NCBI GenBank assembly: GCA_046758845.1
Contig: JBHIBA010000001.1
Span: 1 to 61,180 of the forward strand
Origin: Nitrospinota bacterium
GTDB lineage: Bacteria > UBA8248 > JACPRG01 > G963555815
DNA length: 61,180 nt
Direction of reading: 5' to 3'
Below the pieces are notes generated by a model that made no database searches, was not told where the DNA came from, and saw only the letters and a list, made by a program, of their open reading frames with translations. Made by a program: the position numbers and the translations under genes. Positions 5,783 through 50,874 of the stretch are shown here, in pieces. Positions within the stretch are counted from its first letter, which is position 1. Each line of letters starts with the position of its first letter.

Positions 5783-5859
5783 TCCGCCTCGATCCGGGCG
5801 CCGGAAAGAGACCCGGCCGTTGACTCCGCTGGAAACCCGCCTGTAAGATGCGTGATTCG

Positions 5860-5888
5860 CTTGTACCGGATAAGAAACTCCTTGTCAA
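5860..5888 (-). promoter_or_regulatory. candidate sigma70-type promoter for the HTH::DctQ ORF
   Basis: On the minus strand: TTGACA (5888..5883), 17-nt spacer, TACAAG (5865..5860), ~80 nt upstream of ATG 5782. The -10 is weak. Confidence 0.25.
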
Positions 5889-24950: not shown

Positions 24951-26216
24951 TTAGCCCTCCGCAGGCAGCTGCGGAAAATGCAGAGGGATTTCCGCCAACC
25001 GTCGCGGCCCATCCTCGCCCACGACCACGGTGTCCCCCAGCATGATCCCCACGTCCTTCCGCCAGTGCGGGTCGTTGATGTCGATGTTGAGGGCGAGGAC
25101 CATGCCGGCTCGCAGCGTGAACGCCTCCAAGCCCCGGCCCGAGAGGACGGGCTCCTCCGGCTTGTACACCACGGTGGGGAACTCGGGCGAGCCCAGGCCG
25201 TGGCCATGGAAGCCGCATTCGATGTAGTCCATCCCCGCCTCCTGCACCGGCCGACGGAACGCCTCCCAGACCTCTCGCAGGGGCGCGCCGGGCCGTAGCC
25301 GCTCCACGCCGCTCTGGAGGCTCTCCACGGCGACGGCATGGACGCGGGCCAGCTCCCCCGGCGGGGGCCCCACGAAAGCAGAGAACTCCACCCCCGTGAG
25401 GTAGCCTCCGCAGCTGGCGTGGAACTCCGTGAGGACGAGATCTCCCGCTCGCAGCGGCCGCGTCGTGGGGGCCAGGGGCTGAGGCCGCGCATGGAGGAGG
25501 TACCGCTCGCAGGTGTCCACGGGGTCCGCGCTGAAAAAGCAAAAGATGTAGGGCTCGCCCCCCGCCGCGATGTGCGCCCGCACCATCTCGGCGTACACCT
25601 CGCACTCCCGCACCCCCGGACGCGCGGCCGCCAGCAGGGCCTCCACCATGGCCGCCGCCAGCCGCCCCGACCGCTCCAACAGGGCGATCTCCTCGGGGCT
25701 CTTAATGAGGCGCAGTTCGTCCAGCACGTCGGTGGCGTCCACCAACTCGGCGCCGGGGAGCGCCTCTCGCAGCGCCTCGTACTCCTGATACGCGATGATG
25801 TGCTGCTGGAGGGCGCTGCCGTACCCCACGATGCCGAGGCGGCCGCGGGCTTGGCCCAGGTCCCGCACGACGCCTGCTAGGGCGTCGATGCCCGTGAGGG
25901 GGCGGACCTCCGCCACCCAGTCTTGGCTGAGGAGGTAGGGCGGGTAGGGGTGATACATGTGGATGTTCTCGACGAAGGCCACGGGGTCGCCCCGGCGGGG
26001 GAAGCAGCAGATGCCTTGCTTGGCCGCGATGTGTGTCAGGTATCGAAGGTTCGCCGTGCCCAAGGCGTAGAACCGGTCCGTGCCCCACACCAGCAGGCAG
26101 TCAAGGCCCCTGCGCCCCATGGCCTCCCGCAGCCCCGCCCAGCGGCGGTCCCGCTCGGCCAGCGAGAGTTGGGGCAGGTGCGCCGTGAGCTTTTCGCGAA
26201 CCGCCGCCCTAGCCAC
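24951..26216 (-). CDS. creatinase-like M24-fold hydrolase (metal ligands largely substituted)
   Basis: Creatinase/prolidase N-domain plus pita-bread domain. By-eye alignment puts TEFHA, GVEFS, ALNID and MLGDT where M24 peptidases have D, D, E, E. Confidence 0.8.
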   Translation of the reverse strand: MARAAVREKLTAHLPQLSLAERDRRWAGLREAMGRRGLDCLLVWGTDRFYALGTANLRYLTHIAAKQGICCFPRRGDPVAFVENIHMYHPYPPYLLSQDWVAEVRPLTGIDALAGVVRDLGQARGRLGIVGYGSALQQHIIAYQEYEALREALPGAELVDATDVLDELRLIKSPEEIALLERSGRLAAAMVEALLAAARPGVRECEVYAEMVRAHIAAGGEPYIFCFFSADPVDTCERYLLHARPQPLAPTTRPLRAGDLVLTEFHASCGGYLTGVEFSAFVGPPPGELARVHAVAVESLQSGVERLRPGAPLREVWEAFRRPVQEAGMDYIECGFHGHGLGSPEFPTVVYKPEEPVLSGRGLEAFTLRAGMVLALNIDINDPHWRKDVGIMLGDTVVVGEDGPRRLAEIPLHFPQLPAEG

Positions 26217-27948: not shown

Positions 27949-27951
27949 TCC

Positions 27952-30048: not shown

Positions 30049-30124
30049 CCGGCCACAACGGGACGCGGGCCGTGCCCCCCCGCGGGTTCATGCCTTGCGC
30101 TGCTCCATGGACCAGGGGATGGTG

Positions 30125-32725: not shown

Positions 32726-33191
32726 AGGTTGCTCTCCCAACAGGATATACCGGCCTGGCCGGACTCTGCGCGAAGGATCCGGTAGTCTTTGCCCGCTCAC
32801 AATCATGTCTGCGATTAGCCTGAGGATACCGGATAACGACCACGGCCTCAACTCAAGAAGGCGATAGAGTTGAGAAGAGGAAGATCCGCTAAATTTCCGC
32901 TGCAAGAAACACTGCAATATAAACGATCGTGCTCCTTTTAAAACGACTTGGATTCGCTGAAGCCAGCCTTCACCCCCGCACCAATCCATTTTCCCCTACG
33001 AGGCGTCAGAGGACCCGACTTTATTTCTCCTCTCCTGGCGTTGGATTCGGTTGACCTGTCCCCGTTCTTAAACCCAGGCCAGAATGTTCTCATTCAACCT
33101 GGGCCTCGCTAAGGGGGGCAGGCCAACTCGGTGTCAGGTGAAATGACTGATATAAATAATCGGAACTATAGGGGCGGGGGGGAGACGATAT

Positions 33192-33665
33192 ATGTCCAAA
33201 CCCGTTAGAGTTCGGAAGGTTGTTTGCCCTGCTTGTGTAACTTTGTTTCCTCAACCCTCCTGCGAGCCAATAACCTGCCCGATTTGCGATGCCCGCTGGT
33301 GGTCGGAAGCAGCTATTCAATCTCAAAAGCCCATCCATGAGATCGTGAAAAACGTTGAAATATTCAATTGGCAGGACCATGGCACATGTCACTACTCCGT
33401 TTATGTCGTTCTGTTGAAGCAGGTTCCAAAAATCAAGGGAAAGGCGTATTACATTGGGATGACCGGGGTCTCTCCCGAAGAGAGGTTTCTCAACCACAAA
33501 CGGGGTATCAAGGCCAGCAGGTGGGTTAAGCGATTCGGCGTGGCTCTGCTCAGAAGAGATTATATCCATCTTAATCCGATGGAGGAAGAACAGGCTCTAC
33601 GAATCGAAGAGGAGCTGGCGGAAAAACTTTTAAACTTGGGGTTTGAGGTCTTTGGGGGTCATTGA
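33192..33665 (+). CDS. Zn-ribbon / GIY-YIG-like nuclease-domain protein
   Basis: N-terminus CPAC...CPIC. Then YSVYVVLL-(13 aa)-YYIGMTGVSPEERFLNHKRG...ALRIEEELAEKLLNLG, resembling the GIY...YIG...R...H...E...N motifs. AT-richer than the flanks. GGGGGGAG RBS. Confidence 0.55.
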   Translation: MSKPVRVRKVVCPACVTLFPQPSCEPITCPICDARWWSEAAIQSQKPIHEIVKNVEIFNWQDHGTCHYSVYVVLLKQVPKIKGKAYYIGMTGVSPEERFLNHKRGIKASRWVKRFGVALLRRDYIHLNPMEEEQALRIEEELAEKLLNLGFEVFGGH

Positions 33666-33903: not shown

Positions 33904-34381
33904 GGCACTATCTCCGGTCATGGGGCTTTGACAAGGGCAGCCAATTTTGGCGTAAAATTCGGTCCGTAAAGGAGGGGGACGCGTTGTGAAGTGAGACTCC
34001 GTGAACTTGCGATGGCTCAAATGGCTCCCCATCATTCTGCCTGCCTTGTTCCCGCAGCTTTGGGGCTCGTGAGGCAGAGATATCTGGAGTCCTTCTTTCC
34101 CCCTTGGATGGAGCAGTTGCGATTCGGGCCACGGTGAAGCCGGGAAAATGAGCCTTGATAAGAATTGATCTTGTCGTTCTCGACCTAGGCGACCACCCGG
34201 GGAAAAGGTATGAGGTTCACGTGAGGAGGGTGGAAACCCGGGTATTTCAGCACCGTCGAGAAGGGAAGGCGCCCTACTGGTTTGGCTCCATGGCAAAGGG
34301 CTTCCGGCACCCTCGGATCGTTTGGGGCTGAACTGGGCGAATCATCGGAATTTGGGTCGTTATGGGTTGAAAGGAGGGCGC

Positions 34382-35884
34382 GTGAGGAAGGAATTAAGAC
34401 GAATCATCACCGCATCGATGGCCCTCGGTTCATCGGCCCGCTTCATTGTTTCTCTTTTTGCATTTTCTCTGTTCTTTTTGCTTCCGACCTTCCTCCATGC
34501 TCACGGGATTCAGGAGGTTCGGTACTCGCCGCCCATTCCGGGATGGCTTTTTCTGATCGGCGGAGGACTCGCCGTCGCTCTCTCCTTTGTGTTAATCCAC
34601 CTGCGCTCGGCGCATCATAAGCCGGTATCCGGCTACGCCAGACTGCACATCCGGTTCGGACCGGGACTTCGGTTTCTGGGGCATTTACTCTCTGCAATGG
34701 GTCTGCTTTTGGGGGGCCTGGTCCTGGCGGGGAGGTTTCTGGGGGACCCAAGGTCTGAAGACACCTTGCCCTCCGTCCTGGTCTGGTCCGGCTGGTGGAT
34801 AGGGCTTGCGTGGCTGACACTGATGATTGGCAACGCCTGGCCCGCCCTCGATCCATGGAACACCCTGCGCCGCATCTACGGCCGCTGGTTTGCCCGCCCT
34901 CTCTCCCTGGGACTTCGGTTTCCCGCCTTCCTTTCCGCGTGGCCGGCCGTCCTTCTCTTCACCGGATTCATCTGGTTTGAGTTGGGATGGTTCCAGGCCA
35001 GCGAAGCCGAGGGCGTCGTCACGGTATTTCTGATTTTCACCGGATGGCTTTGGGTGGGGATGGCCGTTTTCAAGCCCGAAGACTGGTGGGACAACGCGAA
35101 TCCGTTCGCGCGCTATTTTCGGGTCCTGGGAAGGTTCGGGCCTCTCGAGAAACGGGGGATACACATAGAGGCCAGGATCCCGGGAACTGCGCTGCACGAC
35201 ACCAGACTGGGGAACTCCTCGGAAGCGATTTTTGTGATCGTCGTTCTGTTCGCAGTCACGTTTGACGGCTTCGTCGCAACGCCTGAATGGTGGGTATTAC
35301 TTCGGCGGATGATGTTGAAGAGTTTCGAGATTCTTCCTAAAGGCATAGCCTTTCACGCGTCATTCCTGTTCGCCATCTTGGTGGGCGCGGCAACCTTTGG
35401 ATCCGCATATTTCTTGGTTTGCCGGATCATGAGTCATTTTTCAGATGGGTTGCGAAAGACCAGAGAAATCGCACGCGATTTCGCCATGACCCTCGTCCCG
35501 ATTGCAGCCGCCTACCACATCGCCCATTTCATTCCCGCCGTTCCGAGCCGCGTAACCGGACTCGTCCAAGCGATGGCGGATCCTCTCAGTCTCGGTTGGC
35601 ACCTGTTCGGGTGGCATTCTTTCAAATGGGACGTCAAGTGGACTCCGGAAACCGCCGGGATCATTTGGGTGGCACAAACGGGGCTCATCGTTTTGGGACA
35701 TATCGTATCCATCTGGTCGGCTCACCGCAGGGCGTTAATTCTTATTGGGGATAAATCAAAGGCATCCAAGGTCGAACTGCCCGTGGCAATCCTGATGATA
35801 TGTTATACCGTCGTCAGCCTGTGGATTATCTCCAGGCCTGTCTTGAACGAACCCTTGGTCCCGATTCCGGGCCTGACAAGGTAG
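34382..35884 (+). CDS. polytopic membrane protein, unknown function (signal-peptide-like N-terminus)
   Basis: ~500 aa with >=10 hydrophobic segments. GTG 34382 lies 4 nt after AGGAGG. N-terminus ...FAFSLFFLLPTFLHA/HGIQEV. No family recognised. Confidence 0.65.
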   Translation: MRKELRRIITASMALGSSARFIVSLFAFSLFFLLPTFLHAHGIQEVRYSPPIPGWLFLIGGGLAVALSFVLIHLRSAHHKPVSGYARLHIRFGPGLRFLGHLLSAMGLLLGGLVLAGRFLGDPRSEDTLPSVLVWSGWWIGLAWLTLMIGNAWPALDPWNTLRRIYGRWFARPLSLGLRFPAFLSAWPAVLLFTGFIWFELGWFQASEAEGVVTVFLIFTGWLWVGMAVFKPEDWWDNANPFARYFRVLGRFGPLEKRGIHIEARIPGTALHDTRLGNSSEAIFVIVVLFAVTFDGFVATPEWWVLLRRMMLKSFEILPKGIAFHASFLFAILVGAATFGSAYFLVCRIMSHFSDGLRKTREIARDFAMTLVPIAAAYHIAHFIPAVPSRVTGLVQAMADPLSLGWHLFGWHSFKWDVKWTPETAGIIWVAQTGLIVLGHIVSIWSAHRRALILIGDKSKASKVELPVAILMICYTVVSLWIISRPVLNEPLVPIPGLTR

Positions 35885-36092: not shown

Positions 36093-36692
36093 TCATGGGA
36101 GGATGATGCGGGGCTCGCTGTTCCGACCTTGGGCAACAATAGCACCGGTCCCATTATCGACCACAGTACGTTGGTTGACAGACACGCCCCCAATAAACTC
36201 TTCTTTCCTTGCCTCAACCGTGATCACAGTCAGGAAGCCACCGCGCTCATCGAGGGGAGGCGTAGTGATCGACGGTTTGGGCAAAACCGGAGGGAAGGCC
36301 CGGAGGCATTCTCCGATAAAAAGGCCAATCTCGCTTTGGCCTACCCCCAGCGGTTTGAGGGAAAAGGGAAGGAGGGTACCGTTTCCCGGATCATTGAACG
36401 GACAGGTGTTTCTTTCCAGGTCCGCAACGTTTTCGCCACTGCTCTGGTCGAAGATCTCGACGTTCGTGATGATGAGGTCTTCAGTCGGGTCCTGATTTCT
36501 GAGATTCAGGAGCCCTCTAATCCTGTGGGTAAAAAAACCTGTCGTTGGGTTACCTGTGATAATATTGACGAACGTGGTCCGATAAGCCACTCTGAATTCT
36601 TTTCTTGGCCCTCTGCGACTCTGCGCCCATGCCGAACCCGAGAGGATCAACAGCATCAACGCGACTGCCACCAGGGAAAGCGCCCGTTTCAT
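36093..36692 (-). CDS. secreted protein, unknown function
   Basis: Clear Sec signal peptide MKRALSLVAVALMLLILSGSAWA/QS. Beta-rich composition; no family recognised. Convergent with the membrane protein. Confidence 0.6.
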   Translation of the reverse strand: MKRALSLVAVALMLLILSGSAWAQSRRGPRKEFRVAYRTTFVNIITGNPTTGFFTHRIRGLLNLRNQDPTEDLIITNVEIFDQSSGENVADLERNTCPFNDPGNGTLLPFSLKPLGVGQSEIGLFIGECLRAFPPVLPKPSITTPPLDERGGFLTVITVEARKEEFIGGVSVNQRTVVDNGTGAIVAQGRNSEPRIILP

Positions 36693-37012
36693 GGTTGCCT
36701 CCTATCCGTGTCTGGGCGGCATGATCCAAAGAGCCACCCGCTGGTTTTAGGGCGCCTTGGCTATATAGTGCCGGCCGAATAATAATTCAAGCGTCCGGAG
36801 GGCACTGATAAAAGAATATGCCGGGTTTGTCGGCGACAGCAGCGCGTTGCTTCGTCAGCCGCAGATCATCGCATTGGAAAACTGGCGGGCTTTCCGGGGG
36901 TAATCCTACTCATAGATGATAACGAGTTCGGGCGCCGCTCTTGGAGCGACCGCGAATGCAGGCCCGGGATGTTCTCAATGCAGCATGCGGAGGGGCGCAG
37001 CATGCCGCGCCT

Positions 37013-40191: not shown

Positions 40192-40911
40192 CTACAAGCC
40201 CAAGTAAGCGTGCTTGACCTCCGCGCTGTCAAGCAGGCTCGCGGCCACCCCCTGCATCACGATGCGACCGTTCTCCAGCACCACGCCCCTGTGGGCCACC
40301 GACAGGGCAAGGCGGACGTTCTGTTCGACCAGCAGCACCGTGACGCCCTCCTGATTGATCGCTCGCACAGTGTCGAATATCGCGGCAACCATCTTGGGGG
40401 CGAGACCCAGCGAGGGTTCATCCAGCATCAGAATGCGCGGCCTGAGCATCATGCCCCGGGCGACGGCGACCATTTGTTGCTCGCCCCCGCTCAAGGTCCT
40501 CACCATCTGCCGGCGCCTCTCCTTGAGCACGGGGAACAGGGCGAACACCCGTTCCAGGCTGTCGTACATGTAGGGGCGGGCTCGCAAGGCGTAGGCGCCC
40601 AGTTTCAGGTTGTCGATCACGCTCATATCGGCGAACAGATGGCGGCCCTCGGGGACGTGGATGATGCCCAGCTCCACGATGGTTGTGGGCTCCAGCCCAT
40701 TCAGGCTCCGGCCGTCGAAGCGCACCTCGCCGGCCGCCGGCGCGACCAGGCCCGAAACCGTCTTAAGCAGGGTCGATTTGCCGGCGCCGTTGGGACCCAC
40801 CAGGGTGACGACCTCCCCCTCTTCCACGGCCATCGTGACCGCCCACAGGGTCCGATCGCCGTCGAAAGCCACATCCAGATCCGTGACCTCGAGCGCGGGG
40901 CCCCCGCTCAA
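40192..40911 (-). CDS. livF: branched-chain amino acid ABC transporter ATP-binding protein (LivF-type)
   Basis: Walker A GPNGAGKST, LSGGEQQMVAVARG, MLDEPSLGLAP. Confidence 0.9.
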   Translation of the reverse strand: MSGGPALEVTDLDVAFDGDRTLWAVTMAVEEGEVVTLVGPNGAGKSTLLKTVSGLVAPAAGEVRFDGRSLNGLEPTTIVELGIIHVPEGRHLFADMSVIDNLKLGAYALRARPYMYDSLERVFALFPVLKERRRQMVRTLSGGEQQMVAVARGMMLRPRILMLDEPSLGLAPKMVAAIFDTVRAINQEGVTVLLVEQNVRLALSVAHRGVVLENGRIVMQGVAASLLDSAEVKHAYLGL

Positions 40912-41630
40912 ATCCCTTCCCCCAGATACGCGTCCAGCACTTTCTGGTTCTGGTATAGCTCGCGGGGCAGACCCTCAGCGATTTTGGCGCCGTGGTGGAG
41001 CACGATGACCCGGTCGACAACTTCCATCAAGGCTCTCATCACGTGTTCGATCCAGAAAACGGTGATCCCCATCTCGCCCCTGATCCGTCGGATGATCTCC
41101 ATGACCGACTGCATCTCTACCGGGTTCAGCCCCGCGATGGGCTCATCCAGGAGCAGGAGCTTGGGCCTGGTCGCGAGGGCGGCGGCGATCTCGAGCCGCC
41201 GGCGTTTTGCCGCCGAAAGCTGACGGCTGGGCGCGTCAGTCTCTTCCGAAAGCGCCATGAAGGAGAGAAGCTCACGCGCCTTCTCACGAGTCTGGGCCTG
41301 CGTCAGCTTTTCATGGCTGCCGAAGGTGGCGGCCACGCCCACGAACTCGGCCGCCGTCAGCGCGGGAAAGGTGCGCGGGTCCTGGAAGGTGCGGGCGATG
41401 CCCAGCCGGCACACTTGGTGCGGCTTGAGACCGACGATGGTGGCGCCATTGAACTTGAGCTCGCCCTGGGTCGGTTTGGCGACCGCCGAGATGAGGTTGA
41501 AAAGGGTGGTCTTGCCTGCGCCATTCGGCCCCACAAGACCTACAATCTTCCCGGGTTCAATAGAGAACTGGATGTTGGAGATCGCTGTAATCCCCGAGAA
41601 TTTCTTGGTCAGCTCCGCGACTTCCAGCAC
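40908..41630 (-). CDS. livG: branched-chain amino acid ABC transporter ATP-binding protein (LivG-type)
   Basis: VLEVAELTKKFSGITAISN..., GPNGAGKTT, LSAAKRRRLEIAAAL, LLDEPIAGLNP. Start set at GTG 41630 after GGAGGGG (ORF extends to 41681). Confidence 0.9.
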   Translation of the reverse strand: MLEVAELTKKFSGITAISNIQFSIEPGKIVGLVGPNGAGKTTLFNLISAVAKPTQGELKFNGATIVGLKPHQVCRLGIARTFQDPRTFPALTAAEFVGVAATFGSHEKLTQAQTREKARELLSFMALSEETDAPSRQLSAAKRRRLEIAAALATRPKLLLLDEPIAGLNPVEMQSVMEIIRRIRGEMGITVFWIEHVMRALMEVVDRVIVLHHGAKIAEGLPRELYQNQKVLDAYLGEGI

Positions 41631-41757
41631 GGCCCCTCCGATATAAAACGACGCGCCAGCCTCCGCCGCAAGGCAGGGCAATATTAGCTGAGATTTCCGA
41701 TACCAATTATACCCGGAGAGGTCGCCGGGCCTCTACCTGTCACCACCTCACCCTCTT

Positions 41758-42075
41758 GAGGTGCGGGCGCTCTTCAGGCGAGTGCGCTGGGCGCCTGTTG
41801 AAATCAGTAAGGCAGCTCCGCTCCTGCTCGCCCGGCCTGCAGGGGAAGTTCATCAAAATGGGTGGCCGGATCGTGCGGCATGCCGGACACATCATCTTTC
41901 AGTGGGCCGAGGTGGCCGCATCCGGGGAAATCTATGGCACCATGTTGGCGCGGCGAATGCTGTTGACAGCCCAAGTGGGGCGGCCTGTAATTCTCCTGAT
42001 CGCCAATCAGTGCGGGCCGTTCCTTCAACAGGGGTTAAAATGGAAATTCCTAACTCCATGATTCCCGGGCGCCCG
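41758..42075 (+). mobile_element. IS1380/IS4-superfamily DDE transposase remnant (frameshifted C-terminal part plus IS end region)
   Basis: LQGKFIKMGGRIVRHAGHIIFQWAEVAASGEIYGTMLARR is the conserved transposase tail. Upstream, in another frame, LFRRVRWAPVEISK resembles the FLRRLA-P block. The downstream motif GGGTTAAAATGGAAATTCC (42032..42050) matches the copy at 30157..30176. Confidence 0.55.
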
Positions 42076-42165
42076 GCGCGGGAGGGGTGAACCAACCGCT
42101 CGGAGCGGCGGAGGAAACTGGCCCTTTTGTGTTCTCATGCGGTTCGATACTAGGGGGGAGTCGCG

Positions 42166-42765
42166 ATGATCAAATGGAGTAAAGATATCCTCAGGCGATA
42201 TCGAGAAGCCAAGCAGGTCGAGACGGGGCGCATAAGACAACTCATCGCCGAACATTCAGATGAGATTTATCACGATCCGGACACGCATGTAGGGGGAAAT
42301 CCGCAGGGCGACATCACAATTGCCGAGTTCTTCGACTATCGCTGACCCTTTTGCAAGACCCTTGGTCCAAGGGTCCTCAAGTTGGCCGAGGAGGATTCTG
42401 GAGTCCGCATCGTCCTTAAGGAATTTCCCGTTCACGGGGCGGGATCCCTCATGGCTTCCCGGGCGGCGCTCGCCTCAAAGGCTCAGGGAAAATATCTGGA
42501 CTTCCATAGAGCGCTTTTCAGGGCAGGGCGGAAAATCGATGAGGAAAAGATCATGAAGATTGGTGCGTCACTGGGCCTGGATACTGTACAGCTCAAGGAA
42601 GACATGGAGGCCCCCGGGACCCTGGCCATCGTTGACCGCAACAAGGCCCTTGCAAAATCACTCGGCATCTGGAGAACTCCCTCTATGGTGGTCGGTAACG
42701 AGGTGAGGATCGGGGCAACCAGCTACAAGGGGCTCGAGAAGCTGACTGCTCGGGCGCGGTCCTGA
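42166..42765 (+). CDS. DsbA-like thioredoxin-fold oxidoreductase with in-frame TGA (candidate selenocysteine, U-P-F-C motif)
   Basis: The ORF track gives only 42382..42765. The same frame from ATG 42166 (GGGGGGAG RBS) reads ...HVGGNPQGDITIAEFFDYR-TGA(42343..42345)-PFCKTLGPRVLKLAEEDSGVRIVLKEFPVHG.... The TGA is at the first Cys of the DsbA-like CxxC (codon 60). Confidence 0.75.
42357..42375 (+). promoter_or_regulatory. candidate bacterial SECIS hairpin
   Basis: GACCCUU-GGUCC-AAGGGUC is a perfect 7-bp stem with a 5-nt apical loop containing GGU. It starts exactly 11 nt after UGA 42343..42345. Confidence 0.6.
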
Positions 42766-42825
42766 CCCCTTGAGGTACCCGTATGAGCCTTAAGCACTTT
42801 TCAGGTCGGGGCGGAGAACCCATGA

Positions 42826-43251
42826 ATGGGGAGGCGCCCAATGGTCGTCACAAGGCAATTTGAGGTCGGCGGGGCCGAACCGGCCGGTGAGTTCCTTTGT
42901 TTCGCTACCTACTTGCCTGTGAGAAGATGGCGAAGTGTTATTCCATTCCTGAGAATGTCGTCACGGGTCCAGAGGCAACTGAAAAAAACTCAAGGCTTGG
43001 TTCGGTGCGGTCTTCGGGCGGACTTTCTTCGTAAACGTTTCTGGACCTTTTCGGTTTGGGCCAACGCGGACTCGGTCAACGACTTTGTGGCCGCCGAGCC
43101 GCATGCTACGGCCGTGGAGAAATTCGAAGCGTGGGCGGAACCGGGAGCCGCATTTGTCGAGTGGACGAGCGATCATGGCTCTATCGACTGGGATGAGGCC
43201 GACAGGCGGCTTCAACATCCGGATATGTCCTTTAACCAACCTATCGGGTAA
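42826..43251 (+). CDS. DUF3291-like (dimeric alpha/beta-barrel) protein
   Basis: 141 aa. ...FLCFATYLPVRRWRSVIPFLRMSSRVQRQLKKTQGLVRCGLRADFLRKRFWTFSVWANADSVNDFV... resembles DUF3291. Call is from memory only. Confidence 0.5.
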   Translation: MGRRPMVVTRQFEVGGAEPAGEFLCFATYLPVRRWRSVIPFLRMSSRVQRQLKKTQGLVRCGLRADFLRKRFWTFSVWANADSVNDFVAAEPHATAVEKFEAWAEPGAAFVEWTSDHGSIDWDEADRRLQHPDMSFNQPIG

Positions 43252-43312
43252 CACTTACTAATCGGAGCATAAAAGATTTGGCATAAGGATGGTTTGATGC
43301 TATGTTTTTCGC

Positions 43313-43640
43313 ATGGACCGTTTGGATGCGCGAACTTTGTCCGCCCAAGCCCAGGAAGACCTGCGGCGCCGCGTGGTCGGGGCGGTGGAAGAGGGCCTGT
43401 CGCAGGCCGAGGCTTCGACCCGAAGAGGGCCGGCAGGCGGTGCGCCTGATCACCGACCGATGTCCCGACCAGCTCAAACCGCCCTTCGCCCTTTGGACGC
43501 GCCAGGCGGTGCAACGGCTGTTGGCCGAGCGCTTTGGGGTTACGGTGTCGGTGTGGACGGTCGGGCGGTATCTGACAGACTGGGGGTTCACGCCGCAAAA
43601 ACCCCTGCGCCGCGCGTACGAGCAGAACCCGGCGGCGGCG
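43313..43640 (+). mobile_element. IS630-family transposase N-terminal remnant (frameshifted, truncated)
   Basis: Frame 1 has LDARTLSAQAQEDLRRRVVGAVEEGLSQAEA (HTH). Frame 2 has RQAVRLITDRCPDQLKPPFALWTRQAVQRLLAERFGVTVSVWTVGRYLTDWGFTPQKPLRRAYEQNP. The DDE catalytic part is absent. Confidence 0.6.
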
Positions 43641-43841
43641 GTTGGCGAGGGCCAAGGGAGCGGAGGGAAGACCGGGGCTCGGCCTCGGATGGAACCGCGC
43701 CTTCCCCGGTTCAGCCGGGTCCAGGAGGACGTAGCCTTCGCCGTCGGGTCCGCGGTGGACGATGGCGTCGTTCATCCGGACCAGCGCCTCCAGGTCCACC
43801 CGCGCCCCGTCCCGATGATAGATTCCTACGATCCCGCACAC
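43608..43841 (-). pseudogene. asparagine synthase (glutamine-hydrolysing) 5' stub
   Basis: MCGIVGIYHRDGARVDLEALVRMNDAIVHRGPDGEGYVLL... is the Ntn-amidotransferase start of AsnB-type enzymes. Similarity is lost after ~75 codons where the IS630 remnant abuts it. Confidence 0.55.
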
Positions 43842-43964
43842 GGCCCCCGGCCTTTCCTTTTCAATGGAACGAGAACAAAGCCCTTATTTGAATGAGAAGA
43901 AGGGTATCTCTTAAACGAGAGATGTGTCACACGGCATCGTACCTAGAATGCCTGCGAGCAAACA

Positions 43965-45608
43965 TTACTGCTCCGCCTCCCAGATCTTAACCGTCCAACC
44001 CACTCCTGCTGCCAACTTCTTGCCGTCGGGGGAGAAGCCGACTGAATCTGCTGACGACGACCTACCCACGGTTATGATTCCTTTACGTGCCCCTGAGCGA
44101 ACGTCCCACAGTCTCACCTTCTTGTCATAGCCTGCACTAGCAACGGTCTTTCCGTCAGGCGAAAATACTACCCACAGTACTGTTTCAGTATGCCCGATCA
44201 GCGTACGCTTAAGAGCCCCGCTTTGAGTGTCCCAGAGCCTCACCGTATTGTCCCCACTCCCACTCGCCAGCGTTCTACGATCAGGCGAAAAGGCGACCGA
44301 TTCCACACCGTAGGTATGCCCGGTCAGTTTTCGCCTCAATCTTCTTGTTTGCACGTCCCAGAGTATAACCGTCTTGTCCCAACCTCCGCTTGCGAGCGTT
44401 TCGCCGCCGGGGGAATACGCAACCGAATACACGCTATTTGTATGTCCAGTCAGCGTCTGCAGCAAAGCGCCGGACCTGGCATGCCATATCTTCACCGCAT
44501 CGTCAAACCCTCCGCTTGCTACTAGTTTGCCGTCAGGTGAGAACGCGACTGATTTTATGCCCCCGACGTGTTCTTTTCTTGTCCACTTAGGCTTGCCGCT
44601 CCGAACATCCCAAAGTGTCATCTGGCCAGGTTTCGAAAGATTTCCCGCCTCTGCCCCGGTCACTATCATTTTTCCGTCCGGTGAAAAGGCAATTGATACC
44701 ACCCGCCCTTCTTGCTCCATTGTCATGATCAATGAGCCACTTTGATAGTCCCACAGTTTCACAGAGCTATCGTCATAGGAATGAGGAGGCTTCCCCTTAT
44801 CCAGCGCTGTGGCGATCACATAAGCACCAGGCGAGAATGCGACTTGATTTACACTAGAAAACGTCTTTATCGTCCGAACTAGGTCATATAACGCAAAGTG
44901 AATGACTACCCGCGCGACGGCGGGCGACACCCGCTTGAACAGCGTGGGACCGCGAAGCCTATCCTTCGCCCCTCTCGTCGCGAGGTCTACCGCTTCGTCC
45001 CGCAGCAGCGGCTTGGCGTAGTTGATGGGCACGGCGAAGCCGACGTTGGACACGACAGCGCCAAACAGCTTCGCGTTGATGACGCCGATGACTTCGCCCT
45101 CCTCATTCACCAGCGGCCCGCCACTGTTGCCCGGGTTCACAGCCGCGTCAATTTGGAAGACCTTCTGCGCCCCTTTCGTCTGGATTCCCGAGACGATCCC
45201 GCGTGTCACTTTCAGGCTCTCACCTAATGCACTTGCCAGGGGAAAGCCAAACACTCGCACCTCTTCGCCCACCTCGACAGTATTGGAGTTGCCCAGTGGC
45301 AGAATAGGCAAGTTCTTGGCCTTGATCTGGAGGACCGCCAGATCACGTTTCTTGTCCACGCCCAGAACAAAGGCGTTGTAACTCTTGCCGCCAATCGCCA
45401 CCTCCACGTTTGCCGCGTCCTTCACAGCGTGGGCGGCGGTGAGAAGGTAACCGTCGGAGTGCACGACAAACGCCGTTGCCGTGGGTCTGCGCTGCGTCTG
45501 CGCCGTGGTTGGTTGCTTAACGCCAACTGCTAGACCAACGATCAGGACAAAAGCAACGAGGACGACGCTTACACGCCAGCGGACCCGAAAAATGCGCGCT
45601 TTCAACAT
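43965..45608 (-). CDS. membrane-anchored trypsin-like (S1) serine protease fused to a 7-bladed WD40 beta-propeller
   Basis: N-terminal TM. Triad contexts LLTAAHAV, KKRDLAVLQI, GNSGGPL. Seven WD repeats follow (e.g. VKSVAFSPDGKLVASGGFDDAVKIWH, VESVAFSPDRRTLASGSGDNTVRLWD). Visibly AT-richer than the flanks. Confidence 0.85.
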   Translation of the reverse strand: MLKARIFRVRWRVSVVLVAFVLIVGLAVGVKQPTTAQTQRRPTATAFVVHSDGYLLTAAHAVKDAANVEVAIGGKSYNAFVLGVDKKRDLAVLQIKAKNLPILPLGNSNTVEVGEEVRVFGFPLASALGESLKVTRGIVSGIQTKGAQKVFQIDAAVNPGNSGGPLVNEEGEVIGVINAKLFGAVVSNVGFAVPINYAKPLLRDEAVDLATRGAKDRLRGPTLFKRVSPAVARVVIHFALYDLVRTIKTFSSVNQVAFSPGAYVIATALDKGKPPHSYDDSSVKLWDYQSGSLIMTMEQEGRVVSIAFSPDGKMIVTGAEAGNLSKPGQMTLWDVRSGKPKWTRKEHVGGIKSVAFSPDGKLVASGGFDDAVKIWHARSGALLQTLTGHTNSVYSVAYSPGGETLASGGWDKTVILWDVQTRRLRRKLTGHTYGVESVAFSPDRRTLASGSGDNTVRLWDTQSGALKRTLIGHTETVLWVVFSPDGKTVASAGYDKKVRLWDVRSGARKGIITVGRSSSADSVGFSPDGKKLAAGVGWTVKIWEAEQ

Positions 45609-45863: not shown

Positions 45864-47282
45864 TTACGCGGAGACGGTTTCCACCATCGGGTCCTCTCGC
45901 CGCGCCTCGAGCCCCAACCCGGAGAGGATTTCCCGGGCGAAGGCCAGATTCCTCTCTACGGCGTCCGCGTTCGAGGCCGCGATTGCATCGGCCGCCTCGC
46001 AGGCCCGCCGCATGGCTTCGCCGTCTTTCATGAGCCGCAAGATCGTCTGCGCCATCTCTTCGCCGGTCCGGACCCGAAGGCCGGAGTCGGACCGCAAGAG
46101 CGCCTCGGTGATCTCCCCCCAGTGGTTCATGTGGGGACCGAAGAGGAGCGGACGACCATGAGCCAGCGGCTCGATGGGGTTGTGGCCGAAGGCCAATTTC
46201 CCTTTCGGGACGATGCTGGCTCCGACAAAATTGAGGGTCCCGAGCCCGTAGAGTCGGGGCAGTTCGCCAAAGGTGTCCACGACGATCACCGCGTCGCGGG
46301 GAGCATCGCCGGCATCGAGCGCGGTCTTTCGCTGGTAACCGACGCCCGCCTTGGAGAACACCTCGTCCAGCTTCAGCGCGTTGCTGTAGTAACTCGGGGC
46401 CATCAAGAGGCGGAGGTCCGGAAAAACTTCCCGAACGCGCCGATAGGCCTCCAGGACGACTTCGTCCTCTCCGGCCCGGACGCTCCCGGCGACGAGGACC
46501 GGGGCTTGGGGAGAAATCCCCAGCCTGCGGCGAATCTCCAGGCGCTCCCCTTCCGCGAGACGAAGGTACTCCAAGTCGTACTTCATTTCGCCGACCACGC
46601 GGATCCTCTCCGGGTCGGCGCCCAGGCGGCGGTAGCCTTCCGCGTCCGCCTCCGACTTCACGCCGATGTAGTCCAGAAACCGGTGAAACCCCCGAGGAAT
46701 GGAGCGGGACACAATCTCGTGGGCTTCGTAACCGTGGCTCATGAACCCGCTGAGGAGAACCGTCCGCGTCCCCGCCCGCTGGGCTTCCCGGCACAGCACC
46801 GGGTAGCTCATGTTCTCTATGAAGAAAACGACCTTGGGGCGAAGCGTCCGGATGACGCGGCGAACCACGTTTCGGAGGTCCCACGGACTGTCGAACACAA
46901 AATCCAACTCTTCCCGCCGGCTGGAGAAATCGAAGGAGTACCGGTTGTTGGTGGAAAGCACCAGATTGACGCCGGGATAAAGCGCCCTCAGGCGTTTGAC
47001 GAACGTGACGACCTGCGTGTTCTCGCCCCCCGAGAGGGCCTCGATCCAGACGGTCGGGCGGCGACGCGCGAGCGCCCTGAGGCCCTCCGGTAAAAACCCC
47101 CACCGGCTCCGGAAGAACCGGTGGAAATAGGGGTCCTCCCCGAACGCCACCCGCTTCAGAAAGGTCACCGGCAGGTAGGCGTACGCCTTGAGGACGTACC
47201 TGACCTCACGCGCCAGGTTTTTTGGATTCAACTTCGCGGCCCCCTTCGTGGCCCCCTTCGCGGCCATTATGCCGGAGCGCAC
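45864..47282 (-). CDS. waaA: 3-deoxy-D-manno-octulosonic acid (Kdo) transferase-like glycosyltransferase (GT30)
   Basis: 472 aa. ...VWIEALSGGENTQVVTFVKRLRALYPGVNLVLSTNN..., ...VGASIVPKGKLAFGHNPIEPLAHGRPLLFGPHMNHW... is typical WaaA/KdtA. Start is uncertain because it overlaps the upstream gene by 77 nt. Confidence 0.8.
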   Translation of the reverse strand: MRSGIMAAKGATKGAAKLNPKNLAREVRYVLKAYAYLPVTFLKRVAFGEDPYFHRFFRSRWGFLPEGLRALARRRPTVWIEALSGGENTQVVTFVKRLRALYPGVNLVLSTNNRYSFDFSSRREELDFVFDSPWDLRNVVRRVIRTLRPKVVFFIENMSYPVLCREAQRAGTRTVLLSGFMSHGYEAHEIVSRSIPRGFHRFLDYIGVKSEADAEGYRRLGADPERIRVVGEMKYDLEYLRLAEGERLEIRRRLGISPQAPVLVAGSVRAGEDEVVLEAYRRVREVFPDLRLLMAPSYYSNALKLDEVFSKAGVGYQRKTALDAGDAPRDAVIVVDTFGELPRLYGLGTLNFVGASIVPKGKLAFGHNPIEPLAHGRPLLFGPHMNHWGEITEALLRSDSGLRVRTGEEMAQTILRLMKDGEAMRRACEAADAIAASNADAVERNLAFAREILSGLGLEARREDPMVETVSA

Positions 47283-47970
47283 TCTCCCAGGCGGGAAAAA
47301 GCAATTCGGCGATCTTCAGATCGATCCCCGACCGCACGTCCACGCGCCCGGCGAGGTCCCGGATGGGGACCATCCCGACCCGGTACCCCAAGCGGTCTCC
47401 TCTTTTGATGATTTCCCCCCGGGTCGCACAGACCATACCGCTGATCTCCCGGTAAATGGGCTTCCGCTCCGAGCGCGGGGCGTGGCTCGATTCGCCGACG
47501 GGGGTGAGCCTGCCCTTTTCCTGATACCAGAAGTTGGCGTTTTCCTCGCAGGCCACAAACACCGAATCCCAGTCCTCCCGCACGAGGGTCTCGACAATCT
47601 TGTCGATGAGGCCCGGAAGACGGAAGGGATGGGAAACCTCCAGGAGGACCACGACGTCCACCGCGTTTCCTTCGTGCTCTTCCAACCATCCGACGGCGTG
47701 TTGGAGGACCCGCTCGAGGGGGACGCCCGGACCGGCCAGTTCGCGCGGGCGCAGGAACGGCGTCTCGGCCCCTTCCCGGCGCGCCAGCTCGGCCGTTTCC
47801 TCGTCTTCGGTGGTGACGATGATCCGGTCCACCAGGCGGCTGTCCTTGGCCGCATCCAGGGTGTGAACGAGGAGGGGCTTGCCGCGCAGCAGCTCCCGAT
47901 AGAGTCGTTTCCCCTGAACCGGAACGAGGGCGATGACCTGACTCTTCGGGGAGTCAGCGGGCGATGTCAT
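47206..47970 (-). CDS. acylneuraminate cytidylyltransferase-family paralogue with degenerate N-terminal nucleotide-binding motif
   Basis: CTP_transf_3-like fold, but the N-terminus reads VIALVPVQGKRLYRELLRGKPLL. The neighbouring paralogue has the canonical VVPARGGSKGLTRKNLRLLAGKPLL. Confidence 0.75.
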   Translation of the reverse strand: MTSPADSPKSQVIALVPVQGKRLYRELLRGKPLLVHTLDAAKDSRLVDRIIVTTEDEETAELARREGAETPFLRPRELAGPGVPLERVLQHAVGWLEEHEGNAVDVVVLLEVSHPFRLPGLIDKIVETLVREDWDSVFVACEENANFWYQEKGRLTPVGESSHAPRSERKPIYREISGMVCATRGEIIKRGDRLGYRVGMVPIRDLAGRVDVRSGIDLKIAELLFPAWESALRHNGREGGHEGGREVESKKPGA

Positions 47971-48712
47971 AAACGTCCGAACCCTTCCACTCCGTCAAGA
48001 CCTCCTCCGCCAGCCACAGGTCGAACTCGTCGTGAATGTCCACGGCGGTGGCCGGATCCTCGTTCCAGAGGATGTCCACGCGGCTCCCCACGCGGCGGGG
48101 CGGCTCCTCCAGAAGGAGGCGGGCCCGGGTGGCGCACGCCAGTCCCGTGTCCTCGCGGTAAACCGGCCTCTTCCTCTGCCGCGAGGAATGCCCCGGGTAC
48201 TCGCCCAGGGGTTCGTACCCTCCGCCTTCGGCGTTCTTCCAGAAGTTCTTGTGCGTCTTGTACGCCACGAAAGCCGTTTCCAGCGTCGGGTCCTCCTGAA
48301 GCCTCCGGACAACCTCATCGATCCATCCGGTGCGGCGGAAGACATCGGTGGTCTGGAGGTAGACGAGGATCCCCACCTCGGTCCCCTCGTTTTCCCTCAG
48401 CCAGTGGCAGGCGTGGGCGAGGGTGTCCTCCGTGGTCGCCCAGTCGGAGGTCAACTCGGCAATCCGGCCCGAAGGGGTGCGGAAGGCGTCGGGCCGAAGA
48501 AACGGCGTCTCTGCGCCCCACTGCCGTGAGACGCGGGCGATCTCCTCGTCGTCCGTGGTCACGATCACCCTCTCGACCCGCTGAGCCTTGACCGCCGCCT
48601 GGACGCTGTGAGCCAGGAGGGGCTTTCCCGCCAGGAGCCGGAGGTTTTTCCGGGTCAGACCCTTGGACCCGCCTCTGGCGGGGACGACGGCAACCACCGG
48701 CCCATCGGCCAT
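47954..48712 (-). CDS. acylneuraminate (CMP-nonulosonate/CMP-Kdo type) cytidylyltransferase
   Basis: VVAVVPARGGSKGLTRKNLRLLAGKPLLAHSV... is the canonical NeuA/KdsB-type motif. 252 aa. Confidence 0.85.
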   Translation of the reverse strand: MADGPVVAVVPARGGSKGLTRKNLRLLAGKPLLAHSVQAAVKAQRVERVIVTTDDEEIARVSRQWGAETPFLRPDAFRTPSGRIAELTSDWATTEDTLAHACHWLRENEGTEVGILVYLQTTDVFRRTGWIDEVVRRLQEDPTLETAFVAYKTHKNFWKNAEGGGYEPLGEYPGHSSRQRKRPVYREDTGLACATRARLLLEEPPRRVGSRVDILWNEDPATAVDIHDEFDLWLAEEVLTEWKGSDVYDIAR

Positions 48713-48726
48713 AGCGCGTGGGTTCT

Positions 48727-49425
48727 CTACTCGTCCAAGAGGGGTTGCCGGCCGTTGATGAGCTCGATCATCTTCACGACCCGCTCGGCTCGGGCGGCGT
48801 CCATCGTCTGGTGAATGCCGTGGGGGTGGTACACACTGGCCTGGGGCTCGTAAACGATATGGTAGCCGGATGCGATGACCCTCTTGGCCCAGTCCCGGTC
48901 CTCGACGCCGTTGAGTTCCTCGTCAAAGGGGATGCGCTCCCAGACGTCCCGGCGGATCATGGCGTTGGCATTGTGAAAGAAGGAGTCCTTGACCTGGACC
49001 TTGCGGTCCAGCCCGAAGATGTTCCAGAGGTCCCGCTTGTCGAAGGTGTGGGAGTCGGGCAAAGGTTCCTGCCGGCCGTAGACCGCCGCCACCGCGGGCG
49101 GGCCGAAGTCCGCGGCCAGGCGGTCGAGCCACTTGTTGTGGACCGGGATGCAGTGACCCGACAAACAGACCAGGAACTCGCCTCCCGACGCCTGCATTCC
49201 CCGGTTCAGGGCCCGGCCGAAGCTGAACTCGGAGTCGGTGATGGGGACCACCTTGCAATCGAATTCCCGGACGATCTCCGCCGTCCCGTCCTCCGATTCG
49301 TTGTCCACGACGATAACCTCCCGATTGGTGTAATCCTGCAAGGAGGCCGCCGCCAGGCACCGGCGGATCCACGTCGCTTCATTCTTGGTCCGGATAATGA
49401 TCGAAATCAGCGGTCGGCTGGTCAT
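48727..49425 (-). CDS. family 2 glycosyltransferase
   Basis: ISIIIRTKNEATWIRRCLAAASLQDYTNREVIVVDNESEDGT... with a DxD-like region and the GT-A fold pattern. Confidence 0.85.
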   Translation of the reverse strand: MTSRPLISIIIRTKNEATWIRRCLAAASLQDYTNREVIVVDNESEDGTAEIVREFDCKVVPITDSEFSFGRALNRGMQASGGEFLVCLSGHCIPVHNKWLDRLAADFGPPAVAAVYGRQEPLPDSHTFDKRDLWNIFGLDRKVQVKDSFFHNANAMIRRDVWERIPFDEELNGVEDRDWAKRVIASGYHIVYEPQASVYHPHGIHQTMDAARAERVVKMIELINGRQPLLDE

Positions 49426-50444
49426 TTCACCTCCACCAAACCGAAGGTGATGGGCTCGTCCTTTTGGATGTGATAGAGGGCGCGGCGGCCCAAAAGCCGA
49501 GGAAGCATCCGCGGGGTCAAACCCCGCAGCGGGGCTTTGGTCGTGAGCATCTCCCGGGTGAGGATCGAGCCCTGGGGGATGTCCACCGCCGCGACCACCG
49601 AACGACGCTCGTCGTCAAAGGAATCGTGTTCCTGGGGCAGGACCCGTTTCTCGGCCGGTCCCGACAAAGCGCGCTCGATGCGCCGGACAGCGTCCACCCA
49701 CCGCCGCAGAGGGTCCGGCTCGGCGCTGAAGGCGTGGTCCGAACCGGGAAGCCGGCGGTCCAGCGTGAGGCGCTTCTGGAGCACTCGCGCGCCCAACGCC
49801 ACGGCCACCGGAGCGCTCAGAAGGCCCTCCTCGTGGTCGTCGTATCCGATGGGCCGGTCAAACTGGCGGAGCCATTGCAACATCTGGAGCTGGCCCTCTT
49901 CGGCTCGCATGGGGGAGCACGCGACGCCGTGAAGCAACGTCAGCTCGCCCCCCTCGAAGTGCCGGACGATTTCCGACACCTCATCCGCGTCGCACGCTGC
50001 GGTTGAGACGAAAACCGGTCGCTTCAGAGAGGACAGCGCATCCAGAAGCGGCGTGTCCGTGTTGCATCCGGCAGGCACGTAGAAGCCGTCCACCTCGAGG
50101 TGGTCCAGGAATTCGAGCGACTTCAGGTCGAAGGGCGTCCCCCAAAAGGTGAGGCGGCCCCGAGCGAATTCGCGCAGACGCGCGAAGGCCTCGCCGTCCA
50201 GGTCCAGGCGCCGGGCAACCTCCCGGGCGTTTTTCCCCAGTTCCGGAAAGGCGGCCTCGGCCCGCCAAAGCGCCTCCCGGCCGAAGGTCGCCTCCGGCGA
50301 GCGCTTGTGAAAATTCACGCCATCGCAGCCGCAGTCCGCGGCGACTTCCAACAGTCTGCGGGCGCGCTCATAATCCCCGTTATGATTCACCCCGATCTCC
50401 GCCACCAGGGCGCAGCGAATGGGGGCAGGCTGGTTTTGGGTCAT
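49422..50444 (-). CDS. neuB: N-acetylneuraminate (nonulosonic acid) synthase family protein with C-terminal SAF domain
   Basis: ALVAEIGVNHNGDYERARRLLEVAADCGCDGVNFHKR... is the NeuB TIM-barrel start. The C-terminus (...DIPQGSILTREMLTTKAP...) is SAF/antifreeze-like. Confidence 0.85.
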   Translation of the reverse strand: MTQNQPAPIRCALVAEIGVNHNGDYERARRLLEVAADCGCDGVNFHKRSPEATFGREALWRAEAAFPELGKNAREVARRLDLDGEAFARLREFARGRLTFWGTPFDLKSLEFLDHLEVDGFYVPAGCNTDTPLLDALSSLKRPVFVSTAACDADEVSEIVRHFEGGELTLLHGVACSPMRAEEGQLQMLQWLRQFDRPIGYDDHEEGLLSAPVAVALGARVLQKRLTLDRRLPGSDHAFSAEPDPLRRWVDAVRRIERALSGPAEKRVLPQEHDSFDDERRSVVAAVDIPQGSILTREMLTTKAPLRGLTPRMLPRLLGRRALYHIQKDEPITFGLVEVK

Positions 50445-50874
50445 CTCTGGCGAGGGAATCGTCCCGGCTTGACGAGGTATCCCGCAAGGTCACCCGCAGG
50501 ATGCGGCGAGAACGGCTCCATCCCCCGCATTTCCTCTAATGGCCGGAGCCCATTTACCACTTTCCCGGACAAGAGCAAATCGGGCAGGCGCACACCTCCT
50601 CCGGGCAAACCTCTCCACCCATTTGACCGAAAAACCATACCTTCCACCAGTCGGAACTGTCAAGGGAGATCTCCCGTGGGGGAAGCTCTGGGGGCCCTTT
50701 GGGAAAGATATCCTCGCAAGCCCTAAACACAGAACCGGAGACATCCCCTCAACCGGCCTGCGCTTCCCGCCGCCCGAGCCCCAGGAGGAAGAACTGAAAC
50801 CACCGCTCCTGCCCGCTGTGATAAGATTGCTGTGCCTGCAACGCGACATCTCCTTCTAGCCCCTGGGGCCTGAA

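Follow-up and report, generated by a model that had tools for sequence, protein, structure and literature searches.

A probable selenocysteine codon with a SECIS-like hairpin in a 5'-truncated DsbA/ScsC-like gene of a Nitrospinota bacterium

The window analyzed here is a stretch of 61,180 nucleotides (nt), covering positions 1 to 61,180 of the forward strand of contig JBHIBA010000001.1 from a Nitrospinota bacterium (assembly GCA_046758845.1). The gene in question, referred to as gene 1, lies at 42166..42765 on the plus strand and encodes a DsbA-like thiol-disulfide oxidoreductase whose reading frame is interrupted by a TGA codon at the position of the catalytic cysteine. As judged from its sequence, this TGA is probably a genuine selenocysteine (Sec) codon, accompanied by a selenocysteine insertion sequence (SECIS), in a 5'-truncated gene of the DsbA/ScsC type (COG1651-like). 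This reading is favored because the TGA falls on the catalytic Cys, a hairpin follows it, 16 other homologous loci bear a TGA, and the TGA of a second DsbA-like gene on the same contig (gene 2, at 8216..8803 on the minus strand) is conserved.

In the mechanism proposed, the UGA at codon 60 would be decoded as Sec by SelB-GTP-Sec-tRNA(Sec), with SelB recruited by a hairpin that starts 11 nt further on and fits the bacterial SECIS consensus in its apical GGU(C) loop. The resulting U-P-F-C active site would hold Sec in place of the nucleophilic N-terminal Cys of the CxxC motif, and Sec60 would form a selenenylsulfide with Cys63. This scheme presumes that gene 1 is expressed and that Sec is actually inserted at codon 60. 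A relic, left when a gene for a periplasmic selenoprotein was recently disabled, seems slightly more likely than a gene that still yields a leaderless protein.

A reading frame with a single in-frame TGA

The elements of gene 1 are the following:
42166..42765, plus strand: full recoded frame of gene 1 (translation, Pfam, alignment, and PDB matches)
42151..42153, plus strand: in-frame TAG that closes the frame upstream (sequence read directly)
42153..42160, plus strand: Shine-Dalgarno-like GGGGGGAG, 5 nt before ATG 42166
42343..42345, plus strand: in-frame TGA, the proposed Sec codon, codon 60 of gene 1 (translation and alignment)
42357..42375, plus strand: SECIS-like hairpin of gene 1 (sequence, minimum free energy fold, and consensus model)

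Direct translation from ATG 42166 gives 199 codons followed by a terminal TGA (42763..42765), and the translation of 42151..42768 reads TAG, GGVA, the Met at 42166, FFDYR-stop-PFCK further on, and ARS-stop at the end. The TGA at 42343..42345 is the only internal stop in the 199 codons, and no frameshift is present. This codon, in the context ...GNPQGDITIAEFFDYR-TGA-PFCKTLGPRV..., opens the U-P-F-C redox motif (42343..42354), and the base that follows it is a C (UGA-C). The list of open reading frames (ORFs) consequently splits the gene into two pieces, 42166..42345 (59 amino acids) and 42382..42765 (127 amino acids, with a TTG start).

A first-pass annotation of this DNA, made from the letters alone, had mentioned just the 127-residue ORF from the ORF track and had proposed a 199-codon frame that opens at ATG 42166 behind the TAG at 42151, with a single TGA at codon 60. 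The translation agrees with this description in full, with GGGGGGAG at 42153..42160, 5 nt from the ATG, and the ORF list agrees as well, adding the separate 59-residue ORF at 42166..42345. The same annotation had stated that the recoded codon context is common to the gene at 8216..8803. In fact, GAYTAYNNNTGACCNTTTTGY occurs twice in the window (at 42334 on the plus strand and at 8767 on the minus strand), compared with 0 copies in 100 shuffles.

The TGA occupies the catalytic Cys column of a DsbA-like protein

For the Pfam profile search, U was replaced by C in the protein of gene 1. The gathering thresholds of two families are both exceeded over the whole domain, namely DSBA (PF01323; 77.8 bits versus a cutoff of 25.6, profile positions 1-188 of 191, residues 51-192) and Thioredoxin_4 (PF13462; 62.9 bits versus a cutoff of 23.2, profile positions 3-162 of 165). 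The DsbA-like thioredoxin fold, for which the first-pass annotation had suggested a profile search, is thus borne out, and the strong PF13462 match would mark gene 1 as a member of the COG1651/ScsC type and not of the FrnE type.

A search of 5.8 billion proteins retrieved 82 homologues of gene 1, most of which are Cys-type proteins of ~250 amino acids consisting of an ScsC_N domain (PF18312) and a DsbA domain; the closest ones, all of the Cys type, share 44-51 % identity with it. In an alignment of gene 1 with 11 homologues (12 sequences), 16 columns are invariant, including G44, N45, G48, E54-F-F-D-Y-R59, C60 (the TGA position), and C63. Gene 1 keeps the residues of all 16 and also those of a further 23 columns that are near-invariant (conservation of 90 % or more among the 12 sequences), the retained residues including the cis-Pro T171-P172. 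The TGA column corresponds to the invariant first Cys of EFFDYR-C-xx-C, in agreement with the EFFDYxCPxC-like block anticipated for Cys homologues, and homology is found on both sides of it. When Cys-type proteins were compared with the window by tblastn, the match ran continuously through the TGA with an E-value of ~1e-56. Because the homology spans the TGA in both the alignment and the tblastn comparison, the 59 codons before it belong to one and the same DsbA-like protein as those after it. A lack of homology between these codons and DsbA-like N-termini, which had been named as grounds for abandoning the Sec proposal, is therefore at odds with the alignment, the tblastn match, and the PF01323 score.

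Among solved structures, 3gyk (E 7e-40, query residues 31-198), 7rgv, 4xvw/5id4, 6nen, and 4gxz match gene 1 most closely, with E-values from 7e-40 to 1e-15. The catalytic domain of gene 1 aligns end to end with these ScsC-type structures, and the positions of the CxxC motif and the cis-Pro are conserved. ScsC DsbA-like proteins of the 3gyk/4xvw/5id4/6nen/4gxz type are exported, periplasmic proteins, some of them trimerizing through the N-terminal domain.

A SECIS-like hairpin downstream of the TGA

The hairpin consists of two arms, 42357..42363 (GACCCUU) and 42369..42375 (AAGGGUC), which form a perfect 7-bp stem around the loop 42364..42368 (GGUCC). It starts exactly 11 nt 3' of the UGA, its loop is located 18-19 nt from this codon, and it belongs to the minimum free energy (MFE) fold of 42335..42400. 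Both the sequence and the MFE fold uphold the first-pass description of a perfect 7-bp stem and a GGU-containing loop at an offset of 11 nt from the UGA. An alternative drawing shows 8 bp and a GUC triloop.

The bSECIS model (PMC13188914) specifies an apical loop of 3-9 nt, a stem of 4-16 bp, a G in the first two loop positions, a distance between UGA and loop of 16-37 nt, and an MFE of -7.5 kcal/mol or lower. A SECIS prediction had been recommended at first pass, and under this model the hairpin of gene 1 lies within 4/4 constraints, either in the 7-bp reading (loop GGUCC, 18 nt from the UGA, -8.8 kcal/mol) or in the 8-bp reading (loop GUC, 19 nt from the UGA, -10.9 kcal/mol). A perfect hairpin of at least 7 bp starting 9-20 nt from a given site has a chance probability of p ~0.009, which decreases to ~0.003 with a GG/GU loop, and 1.7 % of background positions on the same contig carry a hairpin as good as that of gene 1 under the strict bSECIS model.

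Comparison among genes is less discriminating. A simple uniform hairpin criterion is passed by 9/17 Sec-type and 2/6 Cys-type genes, and the energies of the best hairpins do not separate TGA-type from Cys-type genes in GC-rich DNA. The strict implementation considers contiguous stems, and many bulged true elements are missed by it. Taken alone, the hairpin is moderate evidence, a weak discriminator that is not decisive. Its evidential strength comes from the fact that it coincides with a TGA located exactly on the catalytic Cys column.

A 16-nt inverted repeat (42349..42364 and 42642..42657, 88 % complementary, sites 277 nt apart, both in gene 1) takes in the stretch just after the TGA, including the 5' arm of the hairpin. 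It is probably due to chance, but could compete with the SECIS fold.

TGA-bearing DsbA-like homologues in other genomes

Two scans for similar loci were carried out. The first one used the pattern GARTTYTTYGAYTAYNNNTGANNNNNNTGY against one genome per GTDB species, representatives that do not include the window's own genome, and gave 31 matches, 4 of which are intact DsbA-like frames with a TGA in the Cys column. The second one, against JGI metagenomes, required CCN after the TGA in an otherwise identical pattern, and 12 of the 16 matches are DsbA-like genes with a TGA in the Cys column. The total number of TGA-type loci besides gene 1 is 16, with 14 distinct sequences when the duplicates L045 and L046 are set aside, and several of them are from Nitrospinota.

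L002, Nitrospinaceae metagenome-assembled genome (MAG); L023, Nitrospinota MAG; L007, Tectomicrobia; L010, "Deltaproteobacteria" MAG: TGA-type loci of the GTDB scan
L002, L007, L010, L023, L033-L036, L038, L040, L041, L043-L048: TGA-type DsbA-like loci, with EFFDYx-TGA-xxC and N-terminal signal or transmembrane segments

Hairpins have been found after the TGA in several of these distant homologues. In L010, whose protein is 30 % identical to that of gene 1, the UGA is followed after 11 nt by GAGGGUC[GGUCA]GACCCUC, an element with the same geometry as that of gene 1 (11 nt, 7-bp stem, GGUC loop) built from another stem sequence. L034 exhibits GGUCCAGC[GGUC]GCUGGACC, while L002, L023, and L043 share GCGCA[GGU/GGG]UGCGC, with respect to which the hairpin GUGCA[GGG]UGCAC of L038 shows a compensatory double change from C-G to U-A. 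The absence of the hairpin from TGA-bearing relatives had been put forward as a result that would count against the SECIS, and these loci (L010, L034, L002/L023/L043, and L038) run contrary to it.

The TGA-type homologues score 37-127 bits against the NCBIfam model NF041057, below its cutoff, and they may represent Sec-type DsbA subfamilies for which no curated model exists, as far as profile scores indicate. Among them is a freshwater-sediment clade with EFFDYQ-U-PFCAKHVRETLPQIEKDY and a conserved bulged hairpin with a CGUGA loop.

A second DsbA-like gene with a conserved TGA on the same contig

The second gene comprises two elements:
8216..8803, minus strand: gene 2, FrnE/DsbA-like (COG2761 type), PF01323 at 107 bits
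8742..8722, minus strand: hairpin of gene 2, UCGCC...GGCGA with a G-rich apical loop

The frame of gene 2 (8803..8216) reads MTSGQSEILLFADYT-TGA-PFCYIALGG..., with the TGA at 8758..8756, and opens directly with the catalytic motif, leaving no space for a signal peptide. Its protein is ~24 % identical to that of gene 1, and its fold energy does not discriminate it from shuffled sequences (z = -1.15). The NCBI record for this gene is a truncated product of 175 amino acids (MFQ5911559.1) without the UxxC site. Its relatives are truncated in a similar manner, as 19/19 close clusters (54-74 % identity) contain proteins of 120-180 amino acids that cover 62-90 % of the query.

Three orthologues of gene 2 (L055, L056, and L057) present an upstream frame M...ILLFADYT-TGA-P[FY]CYIA... 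and a hairpin with a G-rich loop ~13 nt 3' of the TGA. At 58-67 % identity, all of them keep the TGA together with a short coding stretch at the N-terminus. This conservation is hard to explain except as Sec and, because the orthologues keep both the TGA and the coding stretch, it indicates, at the level of sequence comparison, that this lineage would decode UGA as Sec.

Sec machinery, lineage, and genetic code

Nitrospinota-labelled MAGs (GTDB UBA8248) are among the bacteria with the richest selenoproteomes in BSepDB, with 48-54 genes (PMC13326102), and selABCD are presumably present in the genome from which the window derives. A search of the contig for further selenoprotein genes beyond genes 1 and 2 found none, the other UxxC/CxxU matches being out-of-frame noise.

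TGA is also used as a normal stop on this contig, as it terminates hyuA, gene 1 itself, and many well-supported genes. A global reassignment of UGA (genetic codes 4 or 25) is ruled out by these many genes that end in TGA. The same-frame pair 27952..30087 and 26209..27951 (minus strand), split by a TGA, was considered as a selenoprotein candidate and rejected, since it consists of two adjacent genes of the usual kind, hydantoinase/oxoprolinase A (27955..30087) followed by B (26212..27951).

Truncation of gene 1 and points that weigh against Sec decoding

The first-pass annotation had described a protein with no signal peptide immediately next to an insertion sequence (IS) remnant, and both statements hold. 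The charged N-terminus of gene 1 (MIKWSKDILRRYREAKQVE...) contains no hydrophobic segment, and PF18312, present in most of the 82 homologues, has no match in gene 1 at E <= 0.01. The aligned homologues of ~250 amino acids show a hydrophobic leader and the ScsC_N helix ahead of the position where the protein of gene 1 starts, so that the ScsC-type architecture (signal peptide, PF18312, and DsbA domain) is not that of gene 1. A tblastn comparison of 8 homologues with 40900..42900 revealed that homology begins at homologue residue ~51-99 (~56), right at ATG 42166, and no significant remnant of the lost N-terminus appeared upstream of this ATG in any frame. According to the missing signal peptide and the IS neighbor, this copy of gene 1 is therefore 5'-truncated.

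The following elements flank the gene:
41756..42061, plus strand: remnant of the C-terminal end of an IS1380-family transposase, weakly supported (tblastn E 9e-5, 55 % identity over 38 amino acids)
43302..43895, plus strand: fragment of an IS630-family transposase, N-terminal helix-turn-helix (HTH) part only (HTH_33 at 1.7e-19; HTH_32; NF033545 transpos_IS630 at E 3e-14, profile positions 49-126 of 299)

The ORF at 41756..42061 has no Pfam or NCBIfam match. The whole region 41700..43900 resembles a scar left by a rearrangement or by an insertion that has since degraded, and a search upstream of gene 1 found no sigma-70-like promoter. A weak DUF3291-like ORF (42826..43251) was also observed in the low-GC patch that contains gene 1.

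Several observations count against the interpretation of the TGA as a Sec codon in a working gene. Regarding the locus, ~55 residues at the N-terminus, which make up the signal peptide and half of ScsC_N in nearly all the closest homologues of ~250 amino acids, are missing from gene 1, and the GC content is 56-57 % over 41.9-43.4 kb (~1.5 kb), compared with 62-65 % on either side; truncation, missing export signal, IS debris, and lower GC content are what is expected of a dead gene. The deposited NCBI record apparently does not list gene 1 as a protein, because the accession numbering leaves a single slot (MFQ5911588) for 3 ORFs between MFQ5911587 and MFQ5911589, and because the protein search gave no ~100 % match to gene 1. 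Exact look-up of alternative-start fragments, including the 127-residue sequence, also found none of them in the protein collection.

Regarding relatives, no homologue above 51 % identity, and hence no close orthologue, was retrieved among the 5.8 billion proteins. The nearest relatives are of the Cys type (44-49 % identity), and the TGA-type genes retrieved are only 22-38 % identical. Regarding the hairpin, the strict bSECIS model lets through 7.8 % of the background positions of this contig, which is rich in GC, the fold energy of gene 1 is ordinary compared with shuffles (z = 0.03, 66 nt), and among the Cys-type controls 1/6 passes the strict model (L050, whose 5-bp hairpin has the same offset) and 2/6 the looser criterion. 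No Rfam match for SECIS was obtained at the gathering or at permissive E-value thresholds, a null result that is uninformative, since bacterial SECIS elements are poorly covered by Rfam. Finally, no selA, selB, selC (tRNA-Sec), or selD gene was found on the 61-kb contig.

Alternative explanations

Within the favored reading, the alternative to a disabled relic is a functional selenoprotein translated from GGGGGGAG and ATG 42166 without a leader, which would reside in the cytoplasm. This sub-case is possible, although on balance doubtful. It is consistent with the good Shine-Dalgarno-ATG pair placed exactly at the homology boundary, with a complete catalytic domain (DSBA profile positions 1-188 of 191, and the match to 3gyk over residues 31-198), and with the retention of the invariant residues, including the cis-Pro T171-P172, with no further decay. 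Gene 2 is likewise devoid of room for a signal peptide. However, the closest homologues are mostly proteins of ~250 amino acids with ScsC_N and, where aligned, a hydrophobic leader, and the closest solved structures are of the ScsC type, which is periplasmic. Leaderless expression would imply the loss of the export signal and of the oligomerization domain in a gene that sits between two degraded IS copies with no promoter-like site found.

An ordinary pseudogene appears improbable. According to this explanation, an IS cut a Cys-type ScsC-like gene in which a TGC or TGT later changed at random to TGA, and the hairpin is coincidental. The 5' truncation with no N-terminal remnant, the IS fragments on both sides together with the GC trough, the Cys-type nature of all the nearest relatives, the hairpins at the same offset in Cys-type genes (the 1/6 strict and 2/6 looser cases already cited), and the failure to find gene 1 listed as an NCBI protein are all in line with it. 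Nevertheless, chance would have to place the sole stop of the 199 codons exactly on the catalytic Cys, for which a rough, uncomputed estimate is ~1 in 70-100 (with 70-100 codons one step from a stop). Chance would also have to supply, at the canonical spacing, a 7-8-bp hairpin whose loop contains GGU (p ~0.003-0.02). Moreover, no other decay is seen, neither a frameshift nor the loss of conserved residues, and the UxxC-TGA arrangement recurs in the conserved gene 2 of the same contig and at the 16 homologous loci.

An equally small chance is given to a variant in which the Sec codon and the SECIS arose independently in the ScsC-like branch, in which the members known and sampled are otherwise nearly all of the Cys type, and the gene, after IS-mediated loss of the export signal, is expressed as a leaderless cytoplasmic Sec-oxidoreductase. 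If true, this would constitute a natural re-targeting of a periplasmic DsbA-type selenoprotein by a mobile element.

Read-through without Sec is very unlikely, and the same judgment applies to the related proposal that the TGA stems from faulty sequencing or assembly. Termination is weakest at a UGA with C as its next base, and a near-cognate Trp or Cys could be inserted at such a leaky UGA-C; the sequence, on the other hand, comes from a MAG, and no second, independent assembly of this stretch was found. An error, though, would not create the hairpin, nor would it reproduce this TGA context in gene 2 and its independently assembled orthologues, and leakiness fails to explain a TGA on the redox Cys at 16 other loci.

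The least credible option takes the TGA for a true stop, which would leave as product a 127-residue C-terminal DsbA fragment (42382..42765), possibly together with a 59-residue peptide; mechanical ORF calling yields exactly these pieces and NCBI treats gene 2 analogously, but such a product would have neither the CxxC motif nor the thioredoxin fold's first beta-alpha unit, homology is continuous across the TGA, and the 127-residue sequence is absent from the protein collection.

Other features of the contig

Several observations concern other parts of the window. The overlapping ORFs 47209..47994 and 47957..48922 (minus strand) both match CTP_transf_3 (profile positions 1-69 and 20-118) and adjoin NeuB (49425..50489). 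This pair (47206..48922, minus strand) could reflect a duplication, an error of the assembly, or one gene that is split or frameshifted. At 43965..45608 (minus strand), a protein of 547 amino acids (MFQ5911589.1) fuses a trypsin-like peptidase to a WD40 beta-propeller, in DNA of unusually low GC content (51-57 %). No Pfam match was found for the ORFs 33156..33662 (plus strand), 34214..35881 (plus strand, 556 amino acids), and 36096..36701 (minus strand). Lastly, one stop-to-stop segment at 5198..5884 (minus strand) matches both HTH_3 (XRE-type) and the TRAP-transporter component DctQ, an unusual pairing that may correspond to two abutting or overlapping genes or to a fusion.

Significance and comparison with known systems

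The value of these results lies mainly in annotation, as the deposited record appears to miss the active sites of both genes 1 and 2. The same N-terminal mis-call affects the clade of gene 2 (~19 protein clusters) and dozens of metagenomic DsbA-like genes, and corrected calls would enlarge the selenoproteome of Nitrospinota-like bacteria, which had already been flagged as rich in Sec. Gene 1 itself raises no new question and points to no new mechanism. It would provide a further case of Sec in place of the nucleophilic Cys in the CxxC motif of a DsbA fold, and would show a selenoprotein gene in a state of disruption by IS elements.

The minimal SECIS of E. coli fdhF starts 11 nt after the UGA and exhibits a GGUC apical loop in which a G and a U contact SelB. 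The hairpin of the window coincides with it in this offset, in the GGUC loop, and in the C that follows the UGA. The two elements differ in that fdhF contains a bulged U, whereas the stem in the window is perfect, with no evident lower stem back to the UGA and no Rfam match.

Selenoproteins with a UxxC motif of the "DsbA-like" (COG2761) and "DsbG-like" (COG1651) kinds were reported from the Sargasso Sea in 2005 (Zhang, Fomenko & Gladyshev, PMC1088965), and later from Anaeromyxobacter, Desulfovibrio, Desulfotomaculum, and Symbiobacterium (Zhang et al. 2006, PMC1794560). A "DsbA-like protein form 1, PF01323, UxxC" is also listed in a 2026 review (PMC13188914). Gene 1 shares with the DsbG-like (COG1651) and thiol:disulfide interchange selenoproteins the DsbA/DsbG fold, Sec as the first Cys of the CxxC motif, and an in-gene SECIS hairpin directly downstream, and, as for the DsbG-like ones, Cys homologues are widespread. 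Unlike that set, gene 1 belongs to a ScsC-like branch (its best matches carry PF18312) and is devoid of a signal peptide and of half of that domain. With DsbA-like form 1 (COG2761/FrnE), the type to which gene 2 belongs, it has PF01323 and UxxC in common, but it differs in its strong PF13462 match and in its low identity (~24 %) to gene 2.

The best NCBIfam match for gene 1, as well as for every TGA-type homologue tested, is NF041057 (Rcas_1661 family thioredoxin-like (seleno)lipoprotein), a family that is thioredoxin-like, as gene 1 is, and is curated as holding Sec members. With 49.2 bits versus a cutoff of 190 bits, and a match restricted to profile positions 81-242, gene 1 is a relative and not a member of this family, and, in contrast to the NF041057 type, it has neither an N-terminal hydrophobic leader nor the Cys of a lipoprotein signal. 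Similarly, the solved structures of ScsC and of the "27 kDa outer membrane protein" have Cys instead of Sec, and some contain a trimerizing N-terminal domain that is missing in gene 1. In light of these comparisons, gene 1 very probably adds a new member, itself probably damaged, to a kind of selenoprotein gene that is already catalogued.

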